Source of the DNA: Nitrospirota bacterium | GTDB taxonomy: Bacteria > Nitrospirota > Thermodesulfovibrionia > UBA6902 | DNA: 64,000 nucleotides | Assembly: GCA_039715075.1 (NCBI GenBank) | Contig: JBDLIC010000004.1 | Location: forward strand, 3,041-67,040 | Direction: 5' to 3' | Shown here: piece after piece, positions 5,510 to 59,205 of the stretch | Layout: each line of letters opens with the position of its first letter | How positions within the stretch are numbered: position 1 is the stretch's first letter | Notes under the pieces: model-generated | What the model saw: the letters and a program-made list of their open reading frames with translations, nothing else | Databases searched by the model: none | Told to the model about the DNA's origin: nothing | Translations under genes and position numbers: made by a program

Positions 5510-6352
5510 GTGCTTGCTAAAAGAATAATACCGTGTCTGGACGTAAAGGACGGAAGGGTTGTGAAAGGGGTCAACTTTCAAAACCTTACTGATGCCGGCG
5601 ACCCTGTCGAAAACGCGAAGTTCTATGATGAGCAGGGGGCTGATGAGCTTGTGTTCCTGGATGTAACCGCTTCCCATGAAAAAAGGGCAATTATCCTGGA
5701 TGTTGTCGCAAGGACAGCGGATGATGTATTTATGCCCCTGACCGTTGGGGGAGGTATCAAGACACTGGCTGATATAAGGGACCTTCTGAATGCGGGATGT
5801 GATAAAGTTTCTATTAATACAACGTCTGTCAGGACACCGTATTTTATAAGAGAAGCCTCTGAAAAATTCGGGAGCCAGTGTATCGTCGTAGCAGTCGATG
5901 CAAAGCGGTTGCGGCCTGATATGACATTTGAACCGGAAGAGCCGTGGTTTGATGATCCATTTTTAAACGAGACCTGCCTTAAAATGCTATCAAATGGCGG
6001 GACTGTCTGGGCCATTTCGACCCACGGAGGCAGAAAGATGCGGCAGATTGATGCTATTAAGTGGGCGAAGAAAATGGAAGAGCTTGGCGCAGGAGAAATA
6101 CTTCTTACAAGCATGGACCGGGATGGAACCAAGGACGGCTATGATATTGCACTGACCAGAAAAATATCGGAGGCTGTCACGATTCCTGTTGTTGCATCCG
6201 GCGGGGTAGGGACACTTGAGCATTTACGTGAGGGCCTGGTCGAAGGAAAGGCAGATGCCGCCCTTGCAGCCTCTATTTTCCACTACAGGGAGTATTCCGT
6301 AAAAGAGTCAAAGGAATACCTGAAATCAAAAGGGGTACCTGTGAGACTGTGA
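5510..6352 (+). CDS. hisF: imidazole glycerol phosphate synthase cyclase subunit HisF
   Basis: 280 aa; [16 protein letters not shown] start; carries a ~25-aa insertion relative to canonical HisF. Confidence 0.95.
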
Positions 6353-6356
6353 AAAA

Positions 6357-6387
6357 GCTGTCAGCTATCAGCAGTCAGCTTTCAGCT
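6357..6387. repeat. tandem heptamer array GCTNTCA x4.4
   Basis: gctgtca gctatca gcagtca gctttca gct, between convergent hisF and the ThiI-like gene; the same unit family recurs at 57990..58112. Confidence 0.8.
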
Positions 6388-6408
6388 AAGGCAGGAAAAT
6401 ATATAAAC

Positions 6409-7449
6409 TTATAACATAGAACTTATAACGCTCTTTTTTGCTTTTTTCTTTTCTATCCTGTAATAATTTAAAATATCATCATTTGCAGGAGGTACCTTGA
6501 GGTGGTATTTCTTTTCATTTCTGAAAACCGAAACATTTACTTCGGGAAGGTGTTTTGCGTCGGAATATCTTGCGCACATAGCGGCAGCAGCTGATATGGC
6601 ATCATCGGTAACATTTCCGAGAAGAATTGAAGTAGGACTTCCTATGTCTTCAACCTCTAATAAAGTGTCATCAGGTTCTGATAATGATTTAATAGTCTGG
6701 TTCTCTGCTTCATGTCTCCCGATGATAATTTTGCAGTCTGCTGAATATCTGAAATGTCTGCCGACCCTTAAGAAGTTAATGTCTTTGTAATCAGGGTCAC
6801 TGTTATGTTCCAGAAGGTCCTTTAATTTGTAGGAATAGTTCGGCTCTGTCAGTAAACATCCTCCGGCCGGGGAAGGGTATTCCGTCAGTCCAAGCTCATC
6901 AGCCAGTGCCATCTGCGGTTTTCTTGAGCGGCCGTTAAAGTCATAGAGCAGTTCTCTGTTAACAAAACCATTTTCTTCAGAGATTGTAACAGGGAGGAGT
7001 TTTGCGCTGAGCGGCCTCAGGACCAGTCCATTAACATCAGCTGCCTTGTCGATCATAGGAAAGCATTCTTTCCGCTGGCTCATCGGCCTCTGTCCCAGGA
7101 CTTCGCCTGATATCAGGAAGTCAGCGCCCAGTATCTTCATGAGCTCTTTTGCCTCCTTCAGCATGAGAATCCTGCAGTCAATACATGGGTTCATATTTTT
7201 ACCATGGCCATATTTCGGGTTCTTCACTATATCAAAAAATTTATCGGACAGGTGCGACATTTTAACCTTGAATCCAAACTTCTCTGAAGCAGCAAAAGGG
7301 TCCTTGGAACAGGATGATTTATCACTGATATCGCAGCCAAAGTGGTTCAGGAAAGTTATAGCTGTAACATCAACTCCCTGTTTTAACATAATGAGGACAG
7401 CAAGTGTACTGTCGAGACCGCCTGAGTATAATGCTACCGCTTTTGTCAT
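6409..7449 (-). CDS. ThiI-like PP-loop ATPase (no THUMP domain; C-terminal extension)
   Basis: 346 aa; SGGLDST PP-loop at N-terminus; CIDC...SGEVLGQRPMSQ resembles ThiI CxxC..GESLGQVASQ motif. Confidence 0.65.
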   Translation of the reverse strand: MTKAVALYSGGLDSTLAVLIMLKQGVDVTAITFLNHFGCDISDKSSCSKDPFAASEKFGFKVKMSHLSDKFFDIVKNPKYGHGKNMNPCIDCRILMLKEAKELMKILGADFLISGEVLGQRPMSQRKECFPMIDKAADVNGLVLRPLSAKLLPVTISEENGFVNRELLYDFNGRSRKPQMALADELGLTEYPSPAGGCLLTEPNYSYKLKDLLEHNSDPDYKDINFLRVGRHFRYSADCKIIIGRHEAENQTIKSLSEPDDTLLEVEDIGSPTSILLGNVTDDAISAAAAMCARYSDAKHLPEVNVSVFRNEKKYHLKVPPANDDILNYYRIEKKKAKKSVISSML

Positions 7450-27071: not shown

Positions 27072-27169
27072 AAATCCCCCTTTGGCAAAGGGGGATTTAG
27101 GGGGATTATTAAAATGATTTTAGTATGATTATAAAATCTCCCCTAACCCCTCTTTGCCAAAGAGGGGAA
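27072..27169. repeat. bipartite palindromic intergenic repeat, copy A (~100 bp)
   Basis: hairpin aaatccccctttggcaaagggggattt + agggggatt + AT-rich spacer + aatctcccctaa + hairpin cccctctttgccaaagagggg; homologous copies at 49509..49598 and 63914..63960. Confidence 0.85.
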
Positions 27170-28888: not shown

Positions 28889-28913
28889 TCAGATTGCACA
28901 GATTGCACAGATT
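28889..28913. repeat. tandem 9-mer array CAGATTGCA x2.7
   Basis: cagattgca cagattgca cagatt directly after the lipA stop; inverted partner array at 29063..29089. Confidence 0.75.
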
Positions 28914-29062: not shown

Positions 29063-29089
29063 AATCTGTGAAATCTGTGTAATCTGCGG
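29063..29089. repeat. tandem 9-mer array AATCTGTGN x3 (inverse of 28889 array)
   Basis: aatctgtga aatctgtgt aatctgcgg, 19 to 45 nt upstream of the aminotransferase ATG; reverse complement of the CACAGATT units. Confidence 0.75.
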
Positions 29090-30280: not shown

Positions 30281-30282
30281 AA

Positions 30283-30371
30283 ACTGTTCCAACCGTTCCA
30301 ACAGTTTTAACTGTTCCAGCAGTTAACGGCTCAAGCGGCTGAAACGGCTGAAACGGCTGGAACGGTTTTTT
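30283..30371 (+). terminator. compound repeat-hairpin terminator (inverted 9-mer arrays + T6)
   Basis: Array ctgttccaa ccgttccaa cagttttaa ctgttccag and an inverse array aacggctga aacggctgg aacgg, followed by tttttt. Confidence 0.55.
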
Positions 30372-32022: not shown

Positions 32023-32822
32023 TGGACTTTAATGAAGAGCAATTAAAAAGATACAGCAGACATATTATCCTGCCTGAAGTAGGGGGCAAGGGTCAGAAAA
32101 AAATATCCGCGGCAAAGGTCCTGATGGTTGGTGCAGGCGGGCTTGGATGCCCTGTCGGCTATTACCTTGCTGCTGCAGGAGTCGGCACCATTGCTGTCGT
32201 AGACAATGATGAGGTGGAACTCAGCAACCTTCAGAGACAGATTGCGCACAGCGTGAAGACACTGGGTGTAAATAAGGCCGAATCTGCCAAGCAGACCTTC
32301 GAGGGGCTTAACCCGGATGTAAACGTAGTAACAATAAAAGAGAGATTAAACAGTAAAAATATCCTTGATCTGATGAAGGATTATGATATTGTTGTTGACG
32401 GTACGGACAATTTCCCAACACGGTATCTTATAAATGATGCATGTGTAATGCTGAAAAAACCCCTTGTGAGCGGAGCAATTCTGAGGTTTGAAGGACAGAT
32501 AACAACAATATTGCCGGGTGAAGGGCCGTGTTACCGCTGTTTATTTGAAGAGCCGCCTCCGGCAGGGCTTGTCCCGTCGTGCCAGGAAGCAGGGGTACTT
32601 GGAGTGCTGCCGGGTGTTATAGGTGCGCTTCAGGCAACAGAGGTCCTTAAACTAATACTGGGCAAGGGAAAGCCTTTAAGCGGCAGCCTGCTTATATATG
32701 ATGCACTCGGAGTAAATTTCAGAAAAGTTAAAATCCCTAAAAACGATGACTGTCCGGTCTGTGGGAAAGATCCGAAGATCACGGACCTGGAAGATCTTCC
32801 GGAAGAGTATTGTTCAATTTAA
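32022..32822 (+). CDS. ThiF/MoeB family sulfur-carrier-protein adenylyltransferase (E1-like)
   Basis: 266 aa; GAGGLGCP nucleotide motif; C-terminal CYRC...CPVCG zinc motif; no rhodanese domain. Confidence 0.88.
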   Translation: MDFNEEQLKRYSRHIILPEVGGKGQKKISAAKVLMVGAGGLGCPVGYYLAAAGVGTIAVVDNDEVELSNLQRQIAHSVKTLGVNKAESAKQTFEGLNPDVNVVTIKERLNSKNILDLMKDYDIVVDGTDNFPTRYLINDACVMLKKPLVSGAILRFEGQITTILPGEGPCYRCLFEEPPPAGLVPSCQEAGVLGVLPGVIGALQATEVLKLILGKGKPLSGSLLIYDALGVNFRKVKIPKNDDCPVCGKDPKITDLEDLPEEYCSI

Positions 32823-32825
32823 AAA

Positions 32826-32914
32826 GGATCCAAGGGGTCCAGGGTTCAAGGATTCGAGTGAAAGAAAAATCAGTTTCACTTGAACCCTCGAATCCTTGAA
32901 TCCTTGAATCCTAG
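32826..32914. repeat. inverted tandem-repeat arrays (GGNTCCAGG-type 9-mers vs CCTTGAATC-type)
   Basis: ggatccaag gggtccagg gttcaagga ttcgag ... cttgaaccc tcgaatcct tgaatcct tgaatcct, between moeB/thiF and the ThrC paralog. Confidence 0.7.
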
Positions 32915-32979
32915 ACTCCTGGTAATAAACAGGAAATATTTTACTAAGTATAGAAGTAATATTGGAGGCAAATTAAATT

Positions 32980-34215
32980 ATGGGTTATGTAAGAGGACTT
33001 AAATGCAGAGAGTGCGGCAGGGAGTATCCTGTTAAACCTATATATGTCTGTGAGTTCTGCTTTGGTCCTTTGGAAGTTGTTTATGATTACGAAGGCATCA
33101 AAAAAGTTCTGACCAGGGAAGTGATTGAATCAAGGCCGCAGAATTTATGGCGTTACAAGGAACTGATGCCGATCGACAATGAGCCGACATGCGGGCTTCA
33201 TTCCGGATTTACGCCCCTTGTCAAGGCTGATAAACTTGCAGCGCATATCGGGCTGAAAGAACTGTATATTAAAGATGATACGGTGACTCACCCGACACTC
33301 TCGTTCAAGGACAGGGTAGTTGCGGTTGCGTTATCAAAGGCAAAGGAGTTCGGATTTGACACTGTTGCATGCGCATCTACGGGAAACCTGGCGCACTCGG
33401 TTTCAGCACACGGCGCTGCCGCGGGCCTGAAAAGGTTTATTTTTATTCCCGCGAGCCTTGAGCAAAGCAAGATAATCGCTTCTCTTGCATATGGGCCTAA
33501 TCTGATCGCTGTTGATGGTAATTATGATGATGTTAACAGGCTCTGCAGTGAAGTTGCCAATAAGTACAACTGGGCCTTTGTGAATATTAATATCAGGCCA
33601 TACTACGCGGAGGGGTCAAAGACACAGGGTTATGAAATAGTCGAACAGCTCGGGTGGAAGGTGCCCGACGCGGTTGTTGTCCCATGCGCAAGCGGTTCCC
33701 TGCTTACGAAGATATGGAAGAGCATGAAGGAAATGAAAGAGGTAGGACTTATTGATGAGGTGAATACTAAAGTGTTCTCTGCACAGGCCACGGGGTGTTC
33801 ACCGATTGTTGCGGCTATAAAGGACGGTGTAGATGTTATTAAGCCTGTAAAGCCGAATACTGTTGCGAAGTCACTTGCTATCGGAAATCCTGCCGACGGT
33901 TTTTACGCAACACGCGTAATAAAGGAGAGCGGGGGGTATGGAGCCGATGTTTCGGATGCGGAAATAATTGAGTCAATGAAACTCATGGCAGAGACCGAAG
34001 GAATATTCGCTGAAACTGCCGGGGGCGTAACTCTTGCTTCAGCAATAAAGCTGATAGAGAGCGGCCATATAGACCGTAATGCTGTGACTGTTCTATGCAT
34101 AACGGGTAATGGATTGAAGACAAAAGAAGCGATAATGGGACATACGGGGGAGCCTCATCATATTGATCCTAATCTGAAATCCTTTGAGGAAGCTCTCGTT
34201 CAAATGAAAAGATGA
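32980..34215 (+). CDS. threonine-synthase-family PLP enzyme with N-terminal zinc ribbon (MetM-like candidate O-phosphohomoserine-dependent homocysteine synthase)
   Basis: 411 aa; CxxC...CxxC at the N-terminus; PLP-lysine motif FKDR; ThrC fold; neighbours are sulfur-carrier genes. Confidence 0.7.
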   Translation: MGYVRGLKCRECGREYPVKPIYVCEFCFGPLEVVYDYEGIKKVLTREVIESRPQNLWRYKELMPIDNEPTCGLHSGFTPLVKADKLAAHIGLKELYIKDDTVTHPTLSFKDRVVAVALSKAKEFGFDTVACASTGNLAHSVSAHGAAAGLKRFIFIPASLEQSKIIASLAYGPNLIAVDGNYDDVNRLCSEVANKYNWAFVNINIRPYYAEGSKTQGYEIVEQLGWKVPDAVVVPCASGSLLTKIWKSMKEMKEVGLIDEVNTKVFSAQATGCSPIVAAIKDGVDVIKPVKPNTVAKSLAIGNPADGFYATRVIKESGGYGADVSDAEIIESMKLMAETEGIFAETAGGVTLASAIKLIESGHIDRNAVTVLCITGNGLKTKEAIMGHTGEPHHIDPNLKSFEEALVQMKR

Positions 34216-40015: not shown

Positions 40016-41493
40016 CAAAAAAGAAAGCTGTCCTGAAAGCACTTCTGATAAGTAAAAGCAAAAAAGACACCAGACTGTTCGAACAAACGTTAGGTCCCGA
40101 AAATGTACCGCTTGATCTGATAAAAACTGAAGGTCCAAAACCTGCCCTCACAATACTGCTTCAAGAGAAAATAGATATTATTTTTGTTGATTTTGGACAA
40201 TCAAAAACAAACCTGAATTTTCTGAAAGAACTCGTAAAGAGAAATACGACTGCACCTGCCATAGCCCTCATCGAAAAGGGGGAGGAATTGATGGCTGCTG
40301 AAGCGATAAAAGAAGGAGCGTACGACTATATTATAAAGGACAGTAAATATTCCGATTCATTGTTACGTTCATATAAGAAAATACGCAGGACACTGAGTGT
40401 GATCGGTAAATCAGATGAAGAGCAGTACAGGCATTCTCTGCTTTTCAAACAAATATACAAAAGTCATAAATGGTGGCAGAACATAATTGACTCAATAACC
40501 GATTATCTGTTCGTTATCGACAGCAGATACAGGATATTGAGAACAAACAAGGCCTTCTCGGACCTCTTTTCAAAGGAGCCGGCTGATATTATAATGAAGC
40601 CCTACTATGAACTGTTCGGGATGAATGAACCGCATGAGTGGTGCGTTCTGTCAAAAAAGGGAGATGAGCTTGCACCCAGTACAATCGAGAGAAAGATAAA
40701 CGAATCAATATATCTGATCAGTTACTTTCCGATCTCGCATGACAAACACAGGGCTGTTGTCTACATTTTGAAGGACATTACGGAGACCAGGCGTTTAAAG
40801 GACCAGATATACCACCTGGACAAACTTTCCTCACTTGGCACTCTTACATCCGGCGTAGCTCATGAGATAAATAATCCGCTTACTGGAATAATCGGTTATA
40901 CGGAAATGCTCCTTATGAAGAAGCCGGATGAAACAATGAGCAAGTATTTGCGGAATGTTTATGATTCTGCCCTGAGATGTAAAAGAATAGTTGAAAACAT
41001 GCTTACATTTTCCCGCCAGAATTCGGCAATTAAAAACCCTGAAAATATAAATGACATTATTGACCGAACTGTTGAACTGCATGAATACTGGCTTAAATCT
41101 ACTAATATAGAGATAGTTAAGAAATATGAACAAGTACCCTTTATTTCTGTTGACCAGCAGCAGATTCAACAGATAATACTTAATCTGATAATCAATGCGG
41201 AGCAGGCAATTGCTGATACGGAAAGACGGGGAAGGATTGAATTCTGTACATCATTCAGAAAAAAAGCAAAAAACATTGTAATAAAAGTCTCAGATAATGG
41301 CAATGGCATACCGCAGGATATACTGCCCAAAATATTCGATCCTTTTTTTACGACAAAACCGGTAAACAAGGGTACAGGACTGGGACTTTCGATCGCCCAC
41401 GGGATTATTGCAGAGCAGGGAGGCACAATTGAAGCAAAGAGCGAACCAGGCAAGGGTACCTCATTTACCATAAAACTTCCTGTCATAAATTAG
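40012..41493 (+). CDS. sensor histidine kinase (receiver-like N-domain, PAS, HisKA, HATPase_c)
   Basis: 493 aa; H-box HEINNPLTGIIGYTE; G-boxes GTGLGLSI and GKGTSF. Confidence 0.85.
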   Translation: MTKKKAVLKALLISKSKKDTRLFEQTLGPENVPLDLIKTEGPKPALTILLQEKIDIIFVDFGQSKTNLNFLKELVKRNTTAPAIALIEKGEELMAAEAIKEGAYDYIIKDSKYSDSLLRSYKKIRRTLSVIGKSDEEQYRHSLLFKQIYKSHKWWQNIIDSITDYLFVIDSRYRILRTNKAFSDLFSKEPADIIMKPYYELFGMNEPHEWCVLSKKGDELAPSTIERKINESIYLISYFPISHDKHRAVVYILKDITETRRLKDQIYHLDKLSSLGTLTSGVAHEINNPLTGIIGYTEMLLMKKPDETMSKYLRNVYDSALRCKRIVENMLTFSRQNSAIKNPENINDIIDRTVELHEYWLKSTNIEIVKKYEQVPFISVDQQQIQQIILNLIINAEQAIADTERRGRIEFCTSFRKKAKNIVIKVSDNGNGIPQDILPKIFDPFFTTKPVNKGTGLGLSIAHGIIAEQGGTIEAKSEPGKGTSFTIKLPVIN

Positions 41494-41668
41494 TGTCTGT
41501 ATATAAACTTGGTTTATCGATTCGTCATTCCCGAAATCCTTAATCGGGAATCTATTCTGTTAAGCAAGTTCTGGATGCCCGATTACTGACTTCGGGCATG
41601 ACAAAAATAAAAAACAGCAGTTTATAATTAGTTGTTTTTCAGGACGGGGCTCCAGGAGTTTTTATTTA

Positions 41669-42291: not shown

Positions 42292-42377
42292 GCCGGAGTG
42301 GTGAAATGGCAGACGCGTCGGACTCAAAATCCGATATCCTCCGGGATGTGTGGGTTCGAATCCCACCTCCGGCACCA
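42292..42377 (+). tRNA. tRNA-Leu (anticodon CAA)
   Basis: 86 nt; GCCGGAG acceptor stem; long variable arm; anticodon loop CUCAAAA; TPsiC arm GGTTCGAATCC; terminal CCA encoded. Confidence 0.88.
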
Positions 42378-47700: not shown

Positions 47701-47738
47701 GACGATAAATTATCAATTACAAATTACGAATTAAAGAA

Positions 47739-48801: not shown

Positions 48802-49457
48802 TGGAGAATGCTTTTTCAGGCAACATTCTTTTATATCTACTCATACCTGTTGCCTTTCTTCTCGGTTCAATCCCCTTTGGCATTATTTTTACAAAGGGCA
48901 GCGGTATTGATATAAGAAGTGTCGGCAGCATGAATATAGGCGCCACAAATGTACTGAGGTCAGCAGGTAAGGTGCCGGCAATTCTTACCCTGCTCGGCGA
49001 TATTCTTAAGGGTTCAGTGGCAGTAATTCTGTGCAGAATTGTATTGGTTAAAGTTGTGCAGCCCGGCTCTGAGACCGGAATTCCTGCTGGAACGGAGGAT
49101 CTGTGGCTTGGCATTATCAGCCTGACAGCTGTGCTGGGACATATGCTGTCCGTTTTTTTGAAATTCCGGGGCGGGAAGGGTGTAGCTACAGGTTTTGGAG
49201 TGATGATCGTTTACAGCCCTCCTGTTGCGGGCCTCATGCTTCTTGTCTGGATTGCGGCTGCAGTATCATTTAAATACTCATCTCTGTCCGCACTTATATC
49301 AGTCAGCATAATGCCTTTTTTATTATTAATGTTCGGAGCTTCCGGCATAAAAATTATATTCGGGATACTGCTGGCACTAATAATTATTTATAAGCATAAG
49401 ACGAATATCAGGGCTCTTCTGGACGGGACAGAGGAAAAAATAGGGCATAAAGAATAA
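48801..49457 (+). CDS. plsY: glycerol-3-phosphate acyltransferase PlsY
   Basis: The ATG at 48801 overlaps the pgsA stop (TAATG) and starts MENAFSGNILLYLL; GSMNIGATNVLR motif; the ORF-track start at 48732 is upstream of this. Confidence 0.9.
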   Translation: MENAFSGNILLYLLIPVAFLLGSIPFGIIFTKGSGIDIRSVGSMNIGATNVLRSAGKVPAILTLLGDILKGSVAVILCRIVLVKVVQPGSETGIPAGTEDLWLGIISLTAVLGHMLSVFLKFRGGKGVATGFGVMIVYSPPVAGLMLLVWIAAAVSFKYSSLSALISVSIMPFLLLMFGASGIKIIFGILLALIIIYKHKTNIRALLDGTEEKIGHKE

Positions 49458-49508
49458 TTAAGAATTACGAATTTTGGATTAATATTTCATGAAAAGTTAT
49501 CCTTTTAT

Positions 49509-49598
49509 ATCTCCCCCTTTGGAAAAGGGGGATTAAGGGGGATTTTATAATTACATCATTGAAAAATCCCCCCTAGCCCCCCTTTACTAAAGTGGGGA
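49509..49598. repeat. bipartite palindromic intergenic repeat, copy B
   Basis: atctccccctttggaaaagggggattaagggggatt...aatcccccctagcccccctttactaaagtgggg; homologous to 27072..27169. Confidence 0.85.
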
Positions 49599-49648
49599 AT
49601 ACAAGTTGAGGAGTCAATAATGCAGTTAACCTTTATAAGGCATATTTA

Positions 49649-50428
49649 ATGAAAAAAGCGGTAGTACTTTTGAGTGGCGGGCTTGATTCTACGACTACAC
49701 TGGCTTTGGCCAAATCTGAAGGGTATGAAGTTTATGCTCTCAGTTTTGATTATGGGCAGAGGCATAATATTGAGCTTGAGCTTGCACAAATGAATGCAGA
49801 TAAATATGATGTAAATAAACATTTCTTGATAAATATTAACCTTAATGACATGGGCGGTTCAGCTCTGACCGCTGATATTGAAGTACCGAAGAGAGTTAAG
49901 AGTCAGGAGTCAAGAGTTAAGAGTAAAGAACAAAAGAAAGACGTAGAGCATAACTCATCACTCCAGACTCAAAACTCTTCTGTTGTTCCTGTTACATATG
50001 TTCCGGCGAGGAATACCATATTTCTTTCTTTTGCTCTTGCTTGGGCAGAGACTCTTGGAGCAGAGGATATTTTTATCGGGGCAAATGCCGTTGACTACAG
50101 TGGATACCCTGACTGCAGGCCTGAATATATAAAGGCATTTCAGGATATGGCAAACCTTGCGACAAAGGCATCTGTGGAAGGAAAGGTCAGGTTCAAAATT
50201 CATACTCCATTGATAAAACTTACAAAGGCGGAGATTATTCAAAAAGGTACGGAACTGGGTGTTGATTATTCGCTGACATGGAGCTGTTATGATCCGGAAG
50301 CAGAGCAAAGAGCACAGAACTCAGAACACAGATTATATTCTCCCTGTATGAAGTGTGACAGTTGTCTGTTTCGGGCAAAGGGGTTTAAGGAGGCAGGAAT
50401 CAAAGACCCGCTGGTCGTTAAAGTTTAA
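49649..50428 (+). CDS. queC: 7-cyano-7-deazaguanine synthase QueC
   Basis: 259 aa; [14 protein letters not shown]-loop; C-terminal Zn-Cys cluster CxxC..C..C; contains a ~30-aa K/S/Q-rich insertion. Confidence 0.92.
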
Positions 50429-56166: not shown

Positions 56167-56353
56167 AAGATGGGTAACCGGACCATTTACATCACCGCAG
56201 ATGATCTTCACCTTTTAAAAACTACGATTGACGAATGACGAGGTTATTACTACTTCGTAATTCGTCAATCGCTATTCGTCAATTTCTTTTCCTGTTGTTT
56301 AAAGGATTAGTTACCTTCTGTCTGCGATATAAGGATAGTGATAGGAGAATAAA

Positions 56354-57231: not shown

Positions 57232-57939
57232 TCATTTTTTAAGCGTACGTATTCTGGCAATATCTTCCTGGTATCCGTAGATGTGTGCGCCTGCGCTGTA
57301 GACATACATCGGTCCGCTTTTCAATCCTGCTTCTTCAGCAACATACTGCTTCAATAATTCTATTCCGCCCAGGTTGGACGGGAACCCTGCCCATAAATCC
57401 CAGGAGCGGAAATAGCAGGTTACGGTAAGCACAAGATCATCCCCCCGGGGTATTGCTTTGAAATCCAGAAGACGTAGACAGGGAGGATCAAAGTTGCCGT
57501 CATTGCCATAGCAGACATCATAATCCTCTGGTGTGGCAATTTCTACAACCGCCTGGTTTGTAAGTGGTGTTTCTTTCAACATCGCGATGGCCCGCTCAAG
57601 CTGTGTTCCTCCCTTGGGCATTGGATAATGTATGCGGCTGGAATACCTGTAGGTTTCATTTTCGGTCAGCTCCGGGTCCATCAGGTAATTTGCAAAGTAG
57701 TCTTCAATATATTCCATTGTTGTAGGGGACGGAATGCCGAGGGCCGGGGGTATCACAGGGACCATATCCTGGTCAGGGTGCTCAATAAAAACTGCCATAC
57801 CGGGAAACTGGAGACGGTACTGCTCTTTCTCAAAAGATCCCTTCTGGATCTGCTGTGTATATGAATTGTCAAATATATTATAGAGGAGCTGAAACCATGC
57901 ATCAGAGATAGTTTTTGCCTTTAGATAATATGGAAACAT
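57232..57939 (-). CDS. thymidylate synthase family protein (divergent, archaeal-type ThyA-like)
   Basis: 235 aa; DPPCL catalytic-Cys context and YFRSWDLWAGFPSNLGG aligning with the ThyA YQRSxDxxLGxPFNIASY region. Confidence 0.6.
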   Translation of the reverse strand: MFPYYLKAKTISDAWFQLLYNIFDNSYTQQIQKGSFEKEQYRLQFPGMAVFIEHPDQDMVPVIPPALGIPSPTTMEYIEDYFANYLMDPELTENETYRYSSRIHYPMPKGGTQLERAIAMLKETPLTNQAVVEIATPEDYDVCYGNDGNFDPPCLRLLDFKAIPRGDDLVLTVTCYFRSWDLWAGFPSNLGGIELLKQYVAEEAGLKSGPMYVYSAGAHIYGYQEDIARIRTLKK

Positions 57940-57989
57940 AAAATGGGCCGCCTTTCTGAAATGAGATATCTTACCATTAATAGTACTAA

Positions 57990-58112
57990 GCTGTCAGCCG
58001 TCAGCTATCAGCTCTCAGCCTTAAAAAAAAAACGAAAGCACCTGCTTTAGTTTAGCTGTCAGCTATCAGCTCTTATTTTTTAGCTGACCGCTGAAAGCTG
58101 ACGGCTGACAGC
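57990..58112. repeat. GCTNTCA heptamer arrays (direct array + inverted array pair) with embedded terminator
   Basis: 57990..58020 gctgtca gccgtca gctatca gctctca gcc; 58054..58072 array; 58083..58112 inverted array ctgaccgctgaaagctgacggctgacagc. On the minus strand a hairpin AAGCAGGUGCUU plus U10 at 58023..58049 terminates the OYE gene, whose C-terminus is encoded within the arrays. Confidence 0.8.
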
Positions 58113-59205
58113 TTTTTTTCTTTACACAATAAATTCCTGTACCCCTTAAGCCAGGCCTGAAACACGCATTGTCGGACATGCATGCTGATTGTATTTCTTT
58201 ACCTGATTCCCACCTGTTGATCAGATCAGGGTCCCGGATGAAAGAACGGCTCATCGATATATAGTCAGTGGTCCCTTCGGTTAACAATTTTTCAGAAACT
58301 TCAAAAGAACGGATACCACCGACGAGCATTAACGGGACAGTGATTTCGGACTTGAATAATTTTGCGGCTTCCAGGTAATAAACCTCTTTATCTGATTCAG
58401 GCATGCCGGGCCTTACCGGTCTCAGCTTTCTGTCAGAATGAATCGTGCCTCCGCTTAACTCAATCGCATCGATGCCCTCTTTTTCGAGCATACGGGAGAC
58501 CACTATCATTTCTTCAACATTGAGTCCGTCTTCCAGAAAGTCTTCAGAGTTTATCTTTATTAAAACAGGGAAGTCATTACCCACGGCATTCCTGACTGAT
58601 CTGTATGATTCAATTATAATACGTGCACGGTTTTCAATGCTGCCGCCATAATCGTCTTCTCTCCTGTTGTAAAACGGTGAGAGGAACTGGCTTAGAAGAT
58701 AACCATGTGCAGCATGAATCTGGACTCCGTCAAAACCGGCCTCTTTTGCCCTGGCAGCTGCATCCCCGAATGCCCTGACTGTTTCTGCTATATCTTCAAT
58801 GCTCATTGCCCTGCATATTGCTTTTCCATTAATCTCAAGGGCGGATGGTCCTGATGGCTCATCTCCGGTGAGTTTCAGGCTGGCCTGGCAACCTGCATGC
58901 GCGAGCTGAAGTACGATCGTTCCATTACTTTGATGGACAGCTTCTGTCATTGATTTAAAACCGGGAATAAAATCATTTTTATGAATACCCAGCTGAAAAG
59001 GCCCTGCCTGGCCTGCGGACTGTACAAAGGCATATCCGGTTATTATCAAACCAGCACCGCCCTCTGCCAGTTTCACCATCATGTCTGTTAACTGTGGAGT
59101 GCAGGAACCGTCCTTTCCTGCGAGCCCCACCCATGTTGCAGAACGCACAAAACGGTTTTTTAGAATCATATTATTTATTTCTGTTTTTTCAAATAAATCT
59201 GACAT
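58066..59205 (-). CDS. Old Yellow Enzyme family NADH:flavin oxidoreductase
   Basis: 379 aa; TIM-barrel OYE motifs (HAAHGYLLSQFLSP); C-terminal Cys residues. Confidence 0.88.
   Translation of the reverse strand: MSDLFEKTEINNMILKNRFVRSATWVGLAGKDGSCTPQLTDMMVKLAEGGAGLIITGYAFVQSAGQAGPFQLGIHKNDFIPGFKSMTEAVHQSNGTIVLQLAHAGCQASLKLTGDEPSGPSALEINGKAICRAMSIEDIAETVRAFGDAAARAKEAGFDGVQIHAAHGYLLSQFLSPFYNRREDDYGGSIENRARIIIESYRSVRNAVGNDFPVLIKINSEDFLEDGLNVEEMIVVSRMLEKEGIDAIELSGGTIHSDRKLRPVRPGMPESDKEVYYLEAAKLFKSEITVPLMLVGGIRSFEVSEKLLTEGTTDYISMSRSFIRDPDLINRWESGKEIQSACMSDNACFRPGLRGTGIYCVKKKSCQPSAFSGQLKNKS

Follow-up and report, generated by a model that had tools for sequence, protein, structure and literature searches.

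Heptad repeat arrays at gene junctions of a Nitrospirota genome: a candidate family of interrupted-hairpin elements with counterparts across phyla and in viral contigs

Introduction

Short tandem arrays of a seven-nucleotide unit occur at two places in a 64-kb stretch of DNA (the window) from a Thermodesulfovibrionia-like Nitrospirota MAG, once behind hisF and once between an oxidoreductase and a thymidylate-synthase-like gene. Do such arrays, at loci that have nothing else in common, represent one family of repeats, and if so, how did they come to lie there and what might they do at the boundaries of genes? Reports of tandem heptamer arrays between bacterial genes go back to 1990 and concern cyanobacteria, Geobacter and Beggiatoaceae; to our knowledge no mechanism has been established for them. 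The original prediction regarded the arrays as a repeat family, with variation in copy number to be sought among relatives and terminator formation as a possible role.

Results

Four arrays of one unit at two loci

The 7-mer arrays behind hisF and at the second locus, there together with an inverted counterpart, have the sequences that were originally described. That inventory comprised both direct arrays and the inverted one, and overlooked a partial direct array at 58054-58073. The heptamer periodicity stands as well, while the unit, first given as GCTNTCA, is better written as TCAGCNN, with five invariant bases followed by two variable ones. The arrays are:

6356..6388, plus strand: array 1, 4.5 heptad units, AGCTGTC AGCTATC AGCAGTC AGCTTTC AGCTA
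57989..58021, plus strand: array 2a, left (5') arm of the locus-2 hairpin, AGC-TG-TCAGC-CG-TCAGC-TA-TCAGC-TC-TCAGC-C
58054..58073, plus strand: array 2b, inner partial direct copy, AGCTGTCAGCTATCAGCTCT
58082..58113, GCTGA orientation on the plus strand: array 2c, right (3') arm, with the reverse complement AGCTGTC AGCCGTC AGCTTTC AGCGGTC AGCT

Split by its core, array 1 reads AGC-TG-TCAGC-TA-TCAGC-AG-TCAGC-TT-TCAGC-TA. Throughout the four window arrays TCAGC is intact in all full units, and differences are confined to the two free positions. All four begin with AGC-TG-TCAGC; moreover, the first 17 bases are identical between arrays 1 and 2b, array 2a and array 2c, the latter read as reverse complement, agree over their first 18, and deleting the second unit from 2a gives 2b. 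Tandem Repeats Finder reported a period of 7 and 4.4-4.7 copies, in keeping with tandem arrays in the usual sense (a head-to-tail unit of 5-11 nt, extending beyond chance length). The identical units of slippage repeats are not seen here, as the window units all differ at the two free positions. A search with the pattern GCTNTCAGCNNTCAGC, allowing at most one mismatch, gave 10 matches in the window, all of them at loci 1 and 2, compared with 0.06 expected from dinucleotide shuffles, none of which reached 10. Two loci 51 kb apart with identical starts of 17-18 nt thus bear out the proposed repeat family as opposed to chance low complexity.

An array behind hisF, of the same length in one close relative

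At locus 1, the array is flanked by:

6350-6352: TGA stop codon of hisF, with array 1 four A's downstream
6409..7449, minus strand: ThiI/NFACT-R gene

These two genes converge on a 56-nt spacer, most of which is taken up by array 1. The array has no inverted partner in its spacer, and its fold, taken alone, is not significant (z -1.35 and -0.67). A T5 run follows it on the strand of the ThiI-like gene; no T-run follows it on the hisF strand.

The nearest relative at this locus, L122, whose hisF and hisA DNA is 94% and 88% identical to that of the window, has the array in a spacer that is identical at 49 of 50 positions, with an equal number of units and a single change at a free position. In this one close comparison the array has not slipped over 6-12% of flanking DNA divergence, which the heterogeneity of its units would explain. 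The anticipated copy-number variation was thus absent from the only close relative at hand, with the same length and one substitution, and a metagenome scan with HisF for strain-level relatives yielded none closer than 89%. L123 and L127/L128, with HisF proteins 93% and 91% identical, have no array and spacers of 4 and 6 nt; the L127 sequence is AAACAGCTA, as against AAA, then 28 nt corresponding to four units, then CAGCTA in the window. Other heptad arrays, of GACGNGT / NNCGTGA type, occupy the hisF-ThiI position in L124-126, L130 and L137, and those of L124-126 are an inverted pair, one just behind each of the two stop codons. L124-L126 also have a gene for a 117-aa protein with a 23S_rRNA_IVP domain between hisA and hisF (2091-2444), which is absent from the window.

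A long hairpin at the oxidoreductase boundary

Locus 2 lies between two minus-strand genes and comprises, besides its arrays, the following features:

58066..59205, minus strand: NADH:flavin oxidoreductase gene, upstream of locus 2
57232..57939, minus strand: thymidylate-synthase-like gene, start at 57939
58023..58032, plus strand: A10 run inside the element, equal to T10 on the minus (sense) strand
58034..58048: small central hairpin GAAAGCACCTGCTTT in the loop, weak, 5 bp
58113..58119, plus strand: T7 run behind the right arm, antisense with respect to the genes on either side

The three arrays of this locus fall within 57989-58113, with 2a and 2c inverted and 60 nt apart. Array 2a has the TCAGC orientation on the plus strand and hence reads GCTGANN on the minus strand, which is sense for the neighbouring genes and on which it lies about 50 nt upstream of the thymidylate-synthase-like start. 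The first two outer units of 2c are exactly complementary to those of 2a; the inner units mismatch at free positions. The stretch 57988-58114 (about 125 nt) is predicted to fold as one long hairpin, with -67.5 kcal/mol on the plus strand and -71 kcal/mol on the minus strand (z about -9.7 to -9.8). On the minus strand, the central hairpin GAAAGCACCTGCTTT followed by T10 may form a weak terminator-like core serving the oxidoreductase gene upstream. A terminator scan did not flag the central hairpin at 58034..58048; its terminator-like matches at 58054-58071 and 58093-58116 are antisense to both genes.

The oxidoreductase ORF reads through array 2c on the minus strand as its last codons, ending in …KKKSCQPSAFSGQLKNKS, and its TGA stop (58066-58068, minus strand) is supplied by array 2b. 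This tail is unlike those of the homologues, which comprise about 10 residues. In L211, whose oxidoreductase protein is 91% identical, the element is absent, with the 22-nt sequence AGCAGGCAGCGGGCTGCTGGAA in its place. The window retains the ancestral ORF end 'aatggtaa' behind the element, indicating that the element sits within the former last codons of the oxidoreductase gene. No record matched the protein of the gene adjoining locus 2 in an exact look-up. Rfam and ARAGORN, run on the window, returned a tRNA-Leu at 42292-42377 as their sole match and none at the arrays, and we therefore rejected an origin from a known RNA or a tRNA.

Other modular repeats in the same genome

The same genome forms further hairpins from modules of 7, 8 and 9 nt. 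Behind an aminotransferase gene, four copies of the 9-mer AACTGTTCC face four copies of GAAACGGCT (30282-30370), with A5 before and T6 after the hairpin (-37.8 kcal/mol, z -5.3). Another 9-mer array (CAGATTGCA, 28890-28913) directly follows the stop codon of a radical-SAM gene, and its inverse (AATCTGTGA, 29063-29086) directly precedes the start of the next gene, so that the two, about 150 nt apart, bracket the entire spacer. A heptad hairpin at 56223-56285 (CGATTGA CGAATGA … ATTCGTC) has its TGA-containing arm first. AT-rich heptad arrays (AAATTAC / GAATTAC) stand right behind two different stop codons, at 47707-47733 and 49445-49480, and are a second heptad unit that recurs at two window loci. 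We also noted two copies of another palindromic repeat, rich in GGGGGATT / AATCCCCC, at 27076-27166 and 49505-49604 (arms of 32-47 nt, 77-81% complementary), and an inverted repeat GTCATTCCCGAAATCC…CGGGCATGAC at 41510-41616, behind a gene ending at 41493; 'gtcattc…gggaatgac' elements akin to the latter occur in the hisF-ThiI spacers of L124, L136 and L145.

In the window, a hairpin whose arms consist of 8-mers (CTTGAATC, 32825-32920, z -5.7) separates the ThiF-family and PLP-enzyme genes. L106, which came from a DNA pattern scan, is an orthologue of this spacer (32822-32980), and a TCAGCNN x4 array, at about 100-126 of L106, stands exactly where the window has the 8-mer hairpin; it adjoins a homologous GAAAGAA…AACAG core. 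Together, the hisF, locus-2 and L106 comparisons indicate that a given gene junction can gain or lose an array or have it replaced by another.

A sister family inside queC

A related type of hairpin has entered a coding sequence:

49890-49982: AGAGTCA-type heptad hairpin, 93 nt, in frame inside queC (49649..50428)

This hairpin is identical at 91 of 93 positions to a copy in L209, compared with 103 of 150 and 131 of 150 positions in its flanks (69% and 87%), and is missing from the closest relative, L210. As judged from these sequences, such a distribution would be the behaviour of a mobile or copied element. QueC proteins of other Nitrospirota contain related repeat-encoded peptides at two permissive sites, sometimes of the same type at both, and these inserts at two hotspots explain why the homologues range from 226 to 290 aa. 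A second in-frame heptad array in the window gene, CAGAACA x4.6 at 50300-50333, encodes a 12-residue peptide; relatives have longer or different repeat-encoded inserts at this site.

The same unit across phyla and in viral contigs

An exact scan of species-genome and viral-contig collections for four TCAGC cores at 7-nt spacing recovered TCAGCNN x4 in at least 120 stretches of species genomes, from many phyla, and in at least 120 stretches of viral contigs. By our own arithmetic (20 fixed bases against 2 x 596 Gb), about one match would be expected by chance in the genome scan. This recurrence, with an architecture that recurs too, further supports a repeat family. The control cores TCGACNN x4 and TGACCNN x4 likewise gave at least 120 matches each in viral contigs, those of TGACC overlapping in part with GCTGACC arrays; TCAGC is therefore not special, and no excess can be claimed for it. 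Among the matches listed are many from Acidobacteriota, as well as Chloroflexota, Verrucomicrobiota, Planctomycetota, Omnitrophota, Cyanobacteria (Okeania, Nostoc), Nitrospirota (Ca. Magnetocorallium), Desulfobacterota and others. In Okeania (L024/L044) and Nostoc (L040), the TCAGC module lies beside other heptad arrays.

Three phage-like contigs from IMG/VR (L246, L247 and L255, about 60% GC) contain 10-17 TCAGCNN arrays in about 9 kb. In these contigs, paired arrays occupy many gene junctions, with the left arm starting 1-5 nt behind a stop codon (TGA-A-AGCTGTCAGC…) and the right arm running up to a start codon (…GCTGAAAGCTT-ATG), leaving no room for a Shine-Dalgarno sequence. The loops between the arms are similar among the elements of L247, a conservation that is not general. 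BLAST of the locus-2 and phage-contig elements against annotated phage records gave no match, for which the low-complexity filter is possibly responsible. Within 284 kb of relatives that had not been chosen by motif, only the orthologous L122 array was found, and the abundance of the arrays in this lineage therefore rests on one 64-kb window.

Rules of array architecture

To derive common rules, we used the 207 arrays of at least three units in the 120 genome loci listed. Arrays comprise 3-6 units, mostly 4-5, and begin with the consensus A-AGC-(T/A)(A/G)-TCAGC. The free positions are mixed in 164 of the 207, with all 16 dinucleotides present; the other 43 are homogeneous, some of them long and resembling ordinary microsatellites (e.g. 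in Pantoea and Streptomyces). The flanks of the 207 arrays show only weak A/T enrichment and no consistent T-run.

Paired arrays have a strongly preferred order. Genome pairs less than 300 nt apart are arranged 5'-TCAGC..GCTGA-3' in 42 cases and in reverse in 4 (p = 5e-9), and viral pairs within 200 nt at a ratio of 68:8, both among the matches listed, which amounts to 110:12 for genomes and viral contigs combined. The TCGAC and TGACC core families are also polar (33:2 and 14:1), as would be expected if whole elements were copied. A stop-codon rule for this order, with the TCA arm first and the TGA arm second, was rejected: it fits TCAGC and GGTCA arrays, but fails both for the stop-free GTCGA..TCGAC family, polar at 33:2, and for the window hairpin 56223-56285 with its TGA-containing arm in first position. 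Nor does every heptad unit contain TGA, which is found in 38% of non-TCAGC arrays, with roughly 20% expected.

Elsewhere, paired arms have gaps of -2 to 196 nt between them. Within pairs, the free dinucleotides of one arm match those of the other at a frequency of 0.469, compared with 0.462 for permuted partners (110 pairs), and are thus at chance level. Hence the stems are series of 5-bp helices parted by 2x2 loops, and we rejected the notion that the arms are exact fold-back copies of each other. Computed folds of 77 pairs from other genomes had a median of -44 kcal/mol, as against -22 kcal/mol for shuffles, with all z below -2.

In TCAGCNN elements, every frame of one arm contains TGA, and the elements occur only in spacers and at the ends of genes. 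By crude ORF calls, 61 arrays lie between tandem, 20 between convergent and 14 between divergent genes. These counts equal background, and specificity of the elements for 3' ends was accordingly rejected. An apparent closeness to start codons is partly an artefact, since GCTGA arrays stop all frames and ORFs were called by greatest length.

Discussion

What, then, are the arrays behind hisF and beside the oxidoreductase gene? The explanation that we favour, and to which we would give about an even chance of being right, is that both loci are copies of a REP/MITE-like family of heptad elements that form interrupted hairpins at gene boundaries. One copy would be an array of 3-5 modules beginning A-AGC-T(G/A)-TCAGC, and a complete element would have the form 5'-(TCAGCNN)n … (GCTGANN)n-3' around a variable spacer, with the arms in fixed polarity. 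As single-stranded RNA or DNA, it would fold into a long interrupted hairpin of 5-bp helices and 2x2 internal loops. Such elements would appear at gene boundaries within short evolutionary times, the source probably being other arrays of the same genome, via transposition or template switching, and after placement they would be stable, without slippage.

The 5+2 pattern, the polarity, the conserved array starts, the shared beginnings of 17-18 nt and the gains at orthologous sites argue together for the copying of whole elements or arrays. Polarity should be random under independent births and inherited under copying, which favours copying over independent growth by slippage. Inverted arms with conserved outer ends (A-AGCTG…) are also present. 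We found no transposase and no conserved internal sequence, and the two comparisons of filled with empty sites (the hisF spacer, and locus 2 against L211) revealed no target-site duplication. It counts against copying that copies at different loci are mosaics of unit variants and not faithful copies, that array 1 is unpaired and has no significant fold, and that some arrays elsewhere are slippage-like; the core-like seeds at empty sites (CAGCTA in L127, AGCAGGCAGC..GCTGCTGG in L211) would fit in-place growth as well.

Indeed, the arrays could be of ordinary microsatellite type, born by slippage in place from local seeds, functionless, and tolerated only between genes. This would agree with their tandem structure, with the seeds just mentioned (that of L211 being GCAGC..GCTGC), with the long arrays of identical units that Pantoea, Streptomyces and others build on the TCAGC core, with the variety of further heptad units in the genomes that carry TCAGCNN (133 arrays of 102 different units), and with the prominence of heptanucleotides, which in many prokaryotes make up the most frequent class of long simple-sequence repeats (PMC4679880). 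However, slippage yields identical neighbours, whereas here every unit differs, and only at 2 of 7 positions; it also leaves unexplained the copy number that is unchanged over 6-12% of flanking DNA divergence, the 110:12 polarity of pairs, the 17-18 identical nucleotides with which arrays at separate loci begin, and the almost unchanged insert in queC genes that have otherwise diverged. We therefore consider this origin rather unlikely, and our best reading is that the heptad arrays are not hypermutable microsatellites. A phase-variation locus was likewise rejected, as the units are imperfect, the length is stable in L122, and the neighbours (hisF and the ThiI-like, oxidoreductase and thymidylate-synthase-like genes) are housekeeping genes.

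Could the arrays instead be phased sites for a sequence-specific protein that reads the 5-nt core every 7 nt? The candidates would be a DNA binder (a nucleoid protein or global regulator) or a binder of single-stranded RNA (of Csp, S1 or HutP type), and the inverted arrangement would offer the same sites on both strands or both transcripts. An invariant core with free spacer bases that are non-complementary between arms, and the fixed polarity of pairs, are what such sites might look like, and the phage-contig arrays abut start codons with no room for a Shine-Dalgarno sequence, a placement also reported for the TAACTGA (= TCAGTTA) repeats (PMC4679880). For the same architecture in Geobacter, global-regulator or IHF/HU sites have been proposed (PMC2700814). 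Yet no candidate protein is known, a 7-bp phasing is ill-suited to simultaneous binding on duplex DNA, the many different cores per genome would require many proteins, and a conserved core with free bases is equally expected from a segmented hairpin with paired cores and unpaired loops. Taken together, this makes protein sites quite unlikely in our estimate.

A bolder version, which we hold to be very unlikely, would be an undescribed cross-phylum, phage-carried system, in which a protein recognises or synthesises the 5-nt core on single-stranded nucleic acid, strictly once every 7 nt, thereby sets the arm polarity, and spreads the arrays or uses them to control expression at gene junctions. 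If true, neighbouring cistrons could, for example, be coupled or insulated without a Shine-Dalgarno sequence.

The least likely account is that of intrinsic (Rho-independent), partly bidirectional terminators whose stems incidentally consist of repeats: the strong locus-2 hairpin with its A10 and T7 runs, the T5 behind array 1 on the strand of the ThiI-like gene, the terminator-like matches at 58054-58071 and 58093-58116, the A5 and T6 around the 9-mer hairpin 30282-30370 and a T-run behind the right arm in L013 (Ca. Magnetocorallium) are compatible with it, but it is weakened because the locus-2 T7 and both scan matches are antisense to both genes and no T-run is consistent across genomes, and further by the hisF strand without a T-run, the merely weak A/T enrichment in the flanks of the 207 arrays, and elements in divergent contexts and directly before start codons in phage gene clusters. 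The originally suggested pairing of arrays into terminators thus fits only in part, given the same antisense T7 and the inconsistent T-runs.

Returning to copied elements of a REP/MITE-like family, their putative function would most likely be that of a hairpin marking transcript boundaries, by which 3' ends are protected or adjacent genes insulated from each other. By crude gene calls, convergent and tandem contexts are not enriched over divergent ones, which disfavours a purely 3'-end role. The elements may equally be neutral passengers, and they may also act as couplers between cistrons or bind protein.

Whatever their function, heptad elements are relevant for annotation, in that they alter where genes end and enter coding sequences without shifting the frame; in the window, one has changed the C-terminus of the oxidoreductase, and the sister family sits inside queC.

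Our search of the literature found no prior description of the TCAGCNN family and nothing on heptamer repeats in Nitrospirae, and the array sequence itself returned only unrelated primer matches in full texts. The closest description is that of paired sites in Geobacter metallireducens, where sets of four octanucleotide or five heptanucleotide units come in pairs, one set on each strand, with a spacing that varies (Aklujkar et al. 2009, PMC2700814). These sites are multicopy, lineage-specific and intergenic, lying for example between proB and proA, and their reading as regulator or IHF/HU sites was proposed without a test (PMC2700814). Locus 2 has the same arrangement, four to five tandem units of 7-8 nt paired on opposite strands, and locus 1 is single; with two loci in 64 kb, both between genes, TCAGCNN is multicopy and intergenic too. 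The class-3 consensus of Geobacter, MTYCTGA, even shares CTGA with GCTGA. The core is nevertheless a different one, TCAGCNN spans many phyla and phages, and for TCAGCNN the polarity rule and the non-complementary free bases have been measured.

TAACTGA direct repeats, in 2-6 intergenic copies, are found in marine Beggiatoaceae, Cyanobacteria and Bacteroidetes (MacGregor 2015, PMC4679880). They stand against start codons, and their distribution suggests horizontal spread (PMC4679880). Their reverse complement, TCAGTTA, shares TCAG with TCAGCNN. Their units are identical, however, and only one inverted pair was seen among 169 sets (PMC4679880), whereas TCAGCNN has two varying positions and inverted pairs are common.

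Like TCAGCNN, the cyanobacterial STRR or heptanucleotide repeats are short tandem heptamers, mostly intergenic and patchy in occurrence, and in Okeania and Nostoc the matches contain the very TCAGC module; for the classical STRR, the units are CCCCAGT, TTGGTCA and CAACAGT. Simple-sequence repeats at large are defined by identical units and slippage, in contrast to the heterogeneous TCAGCNN units, with their stable length in L122.

REP, BIME and REPIN sequences, mobilised by RAYT (e.g. PMC3116915), resemble TCAGCNN in being short, intergenic and palindrome-forming, often with inverted doublets in fixed arrangement, in their placement behind genes, and in their gain and loss between strains. A REP, however, consists of one imperfect palindrome whose 5' tetranucleotide is conserved, while TCAGCNN arms are tandem heptads, and we identified no RAYT gene or other mobilising enzyme within the window. 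By analogy, REP/REPIN would thus be the best functional counterpart, although its defining features are not found here. Rickettsia palindromic elements and other in-frame MITEs bear a likeness only to the AGAGTCA sister family in queC, as TCAGCNN elements stay at gene ends and spacers.

In sum, TCAGCNN is an added family within the long-known class of intergenic heptad repeats, and one for which the rules that any mechanism must meet can be spelled out: five fixed and two free bases, 3-6 units, 5'-TCAGC..GCTGA-3' polarity, non-complementary free bases, placement at stop and start codons, and rapid gain and loss without slippage. With such rules measured across phyla and phages, the question of what heptamer arrays do, from Geobacter and Beggiatoaceae to the cyanobacteria, becomes more testable.
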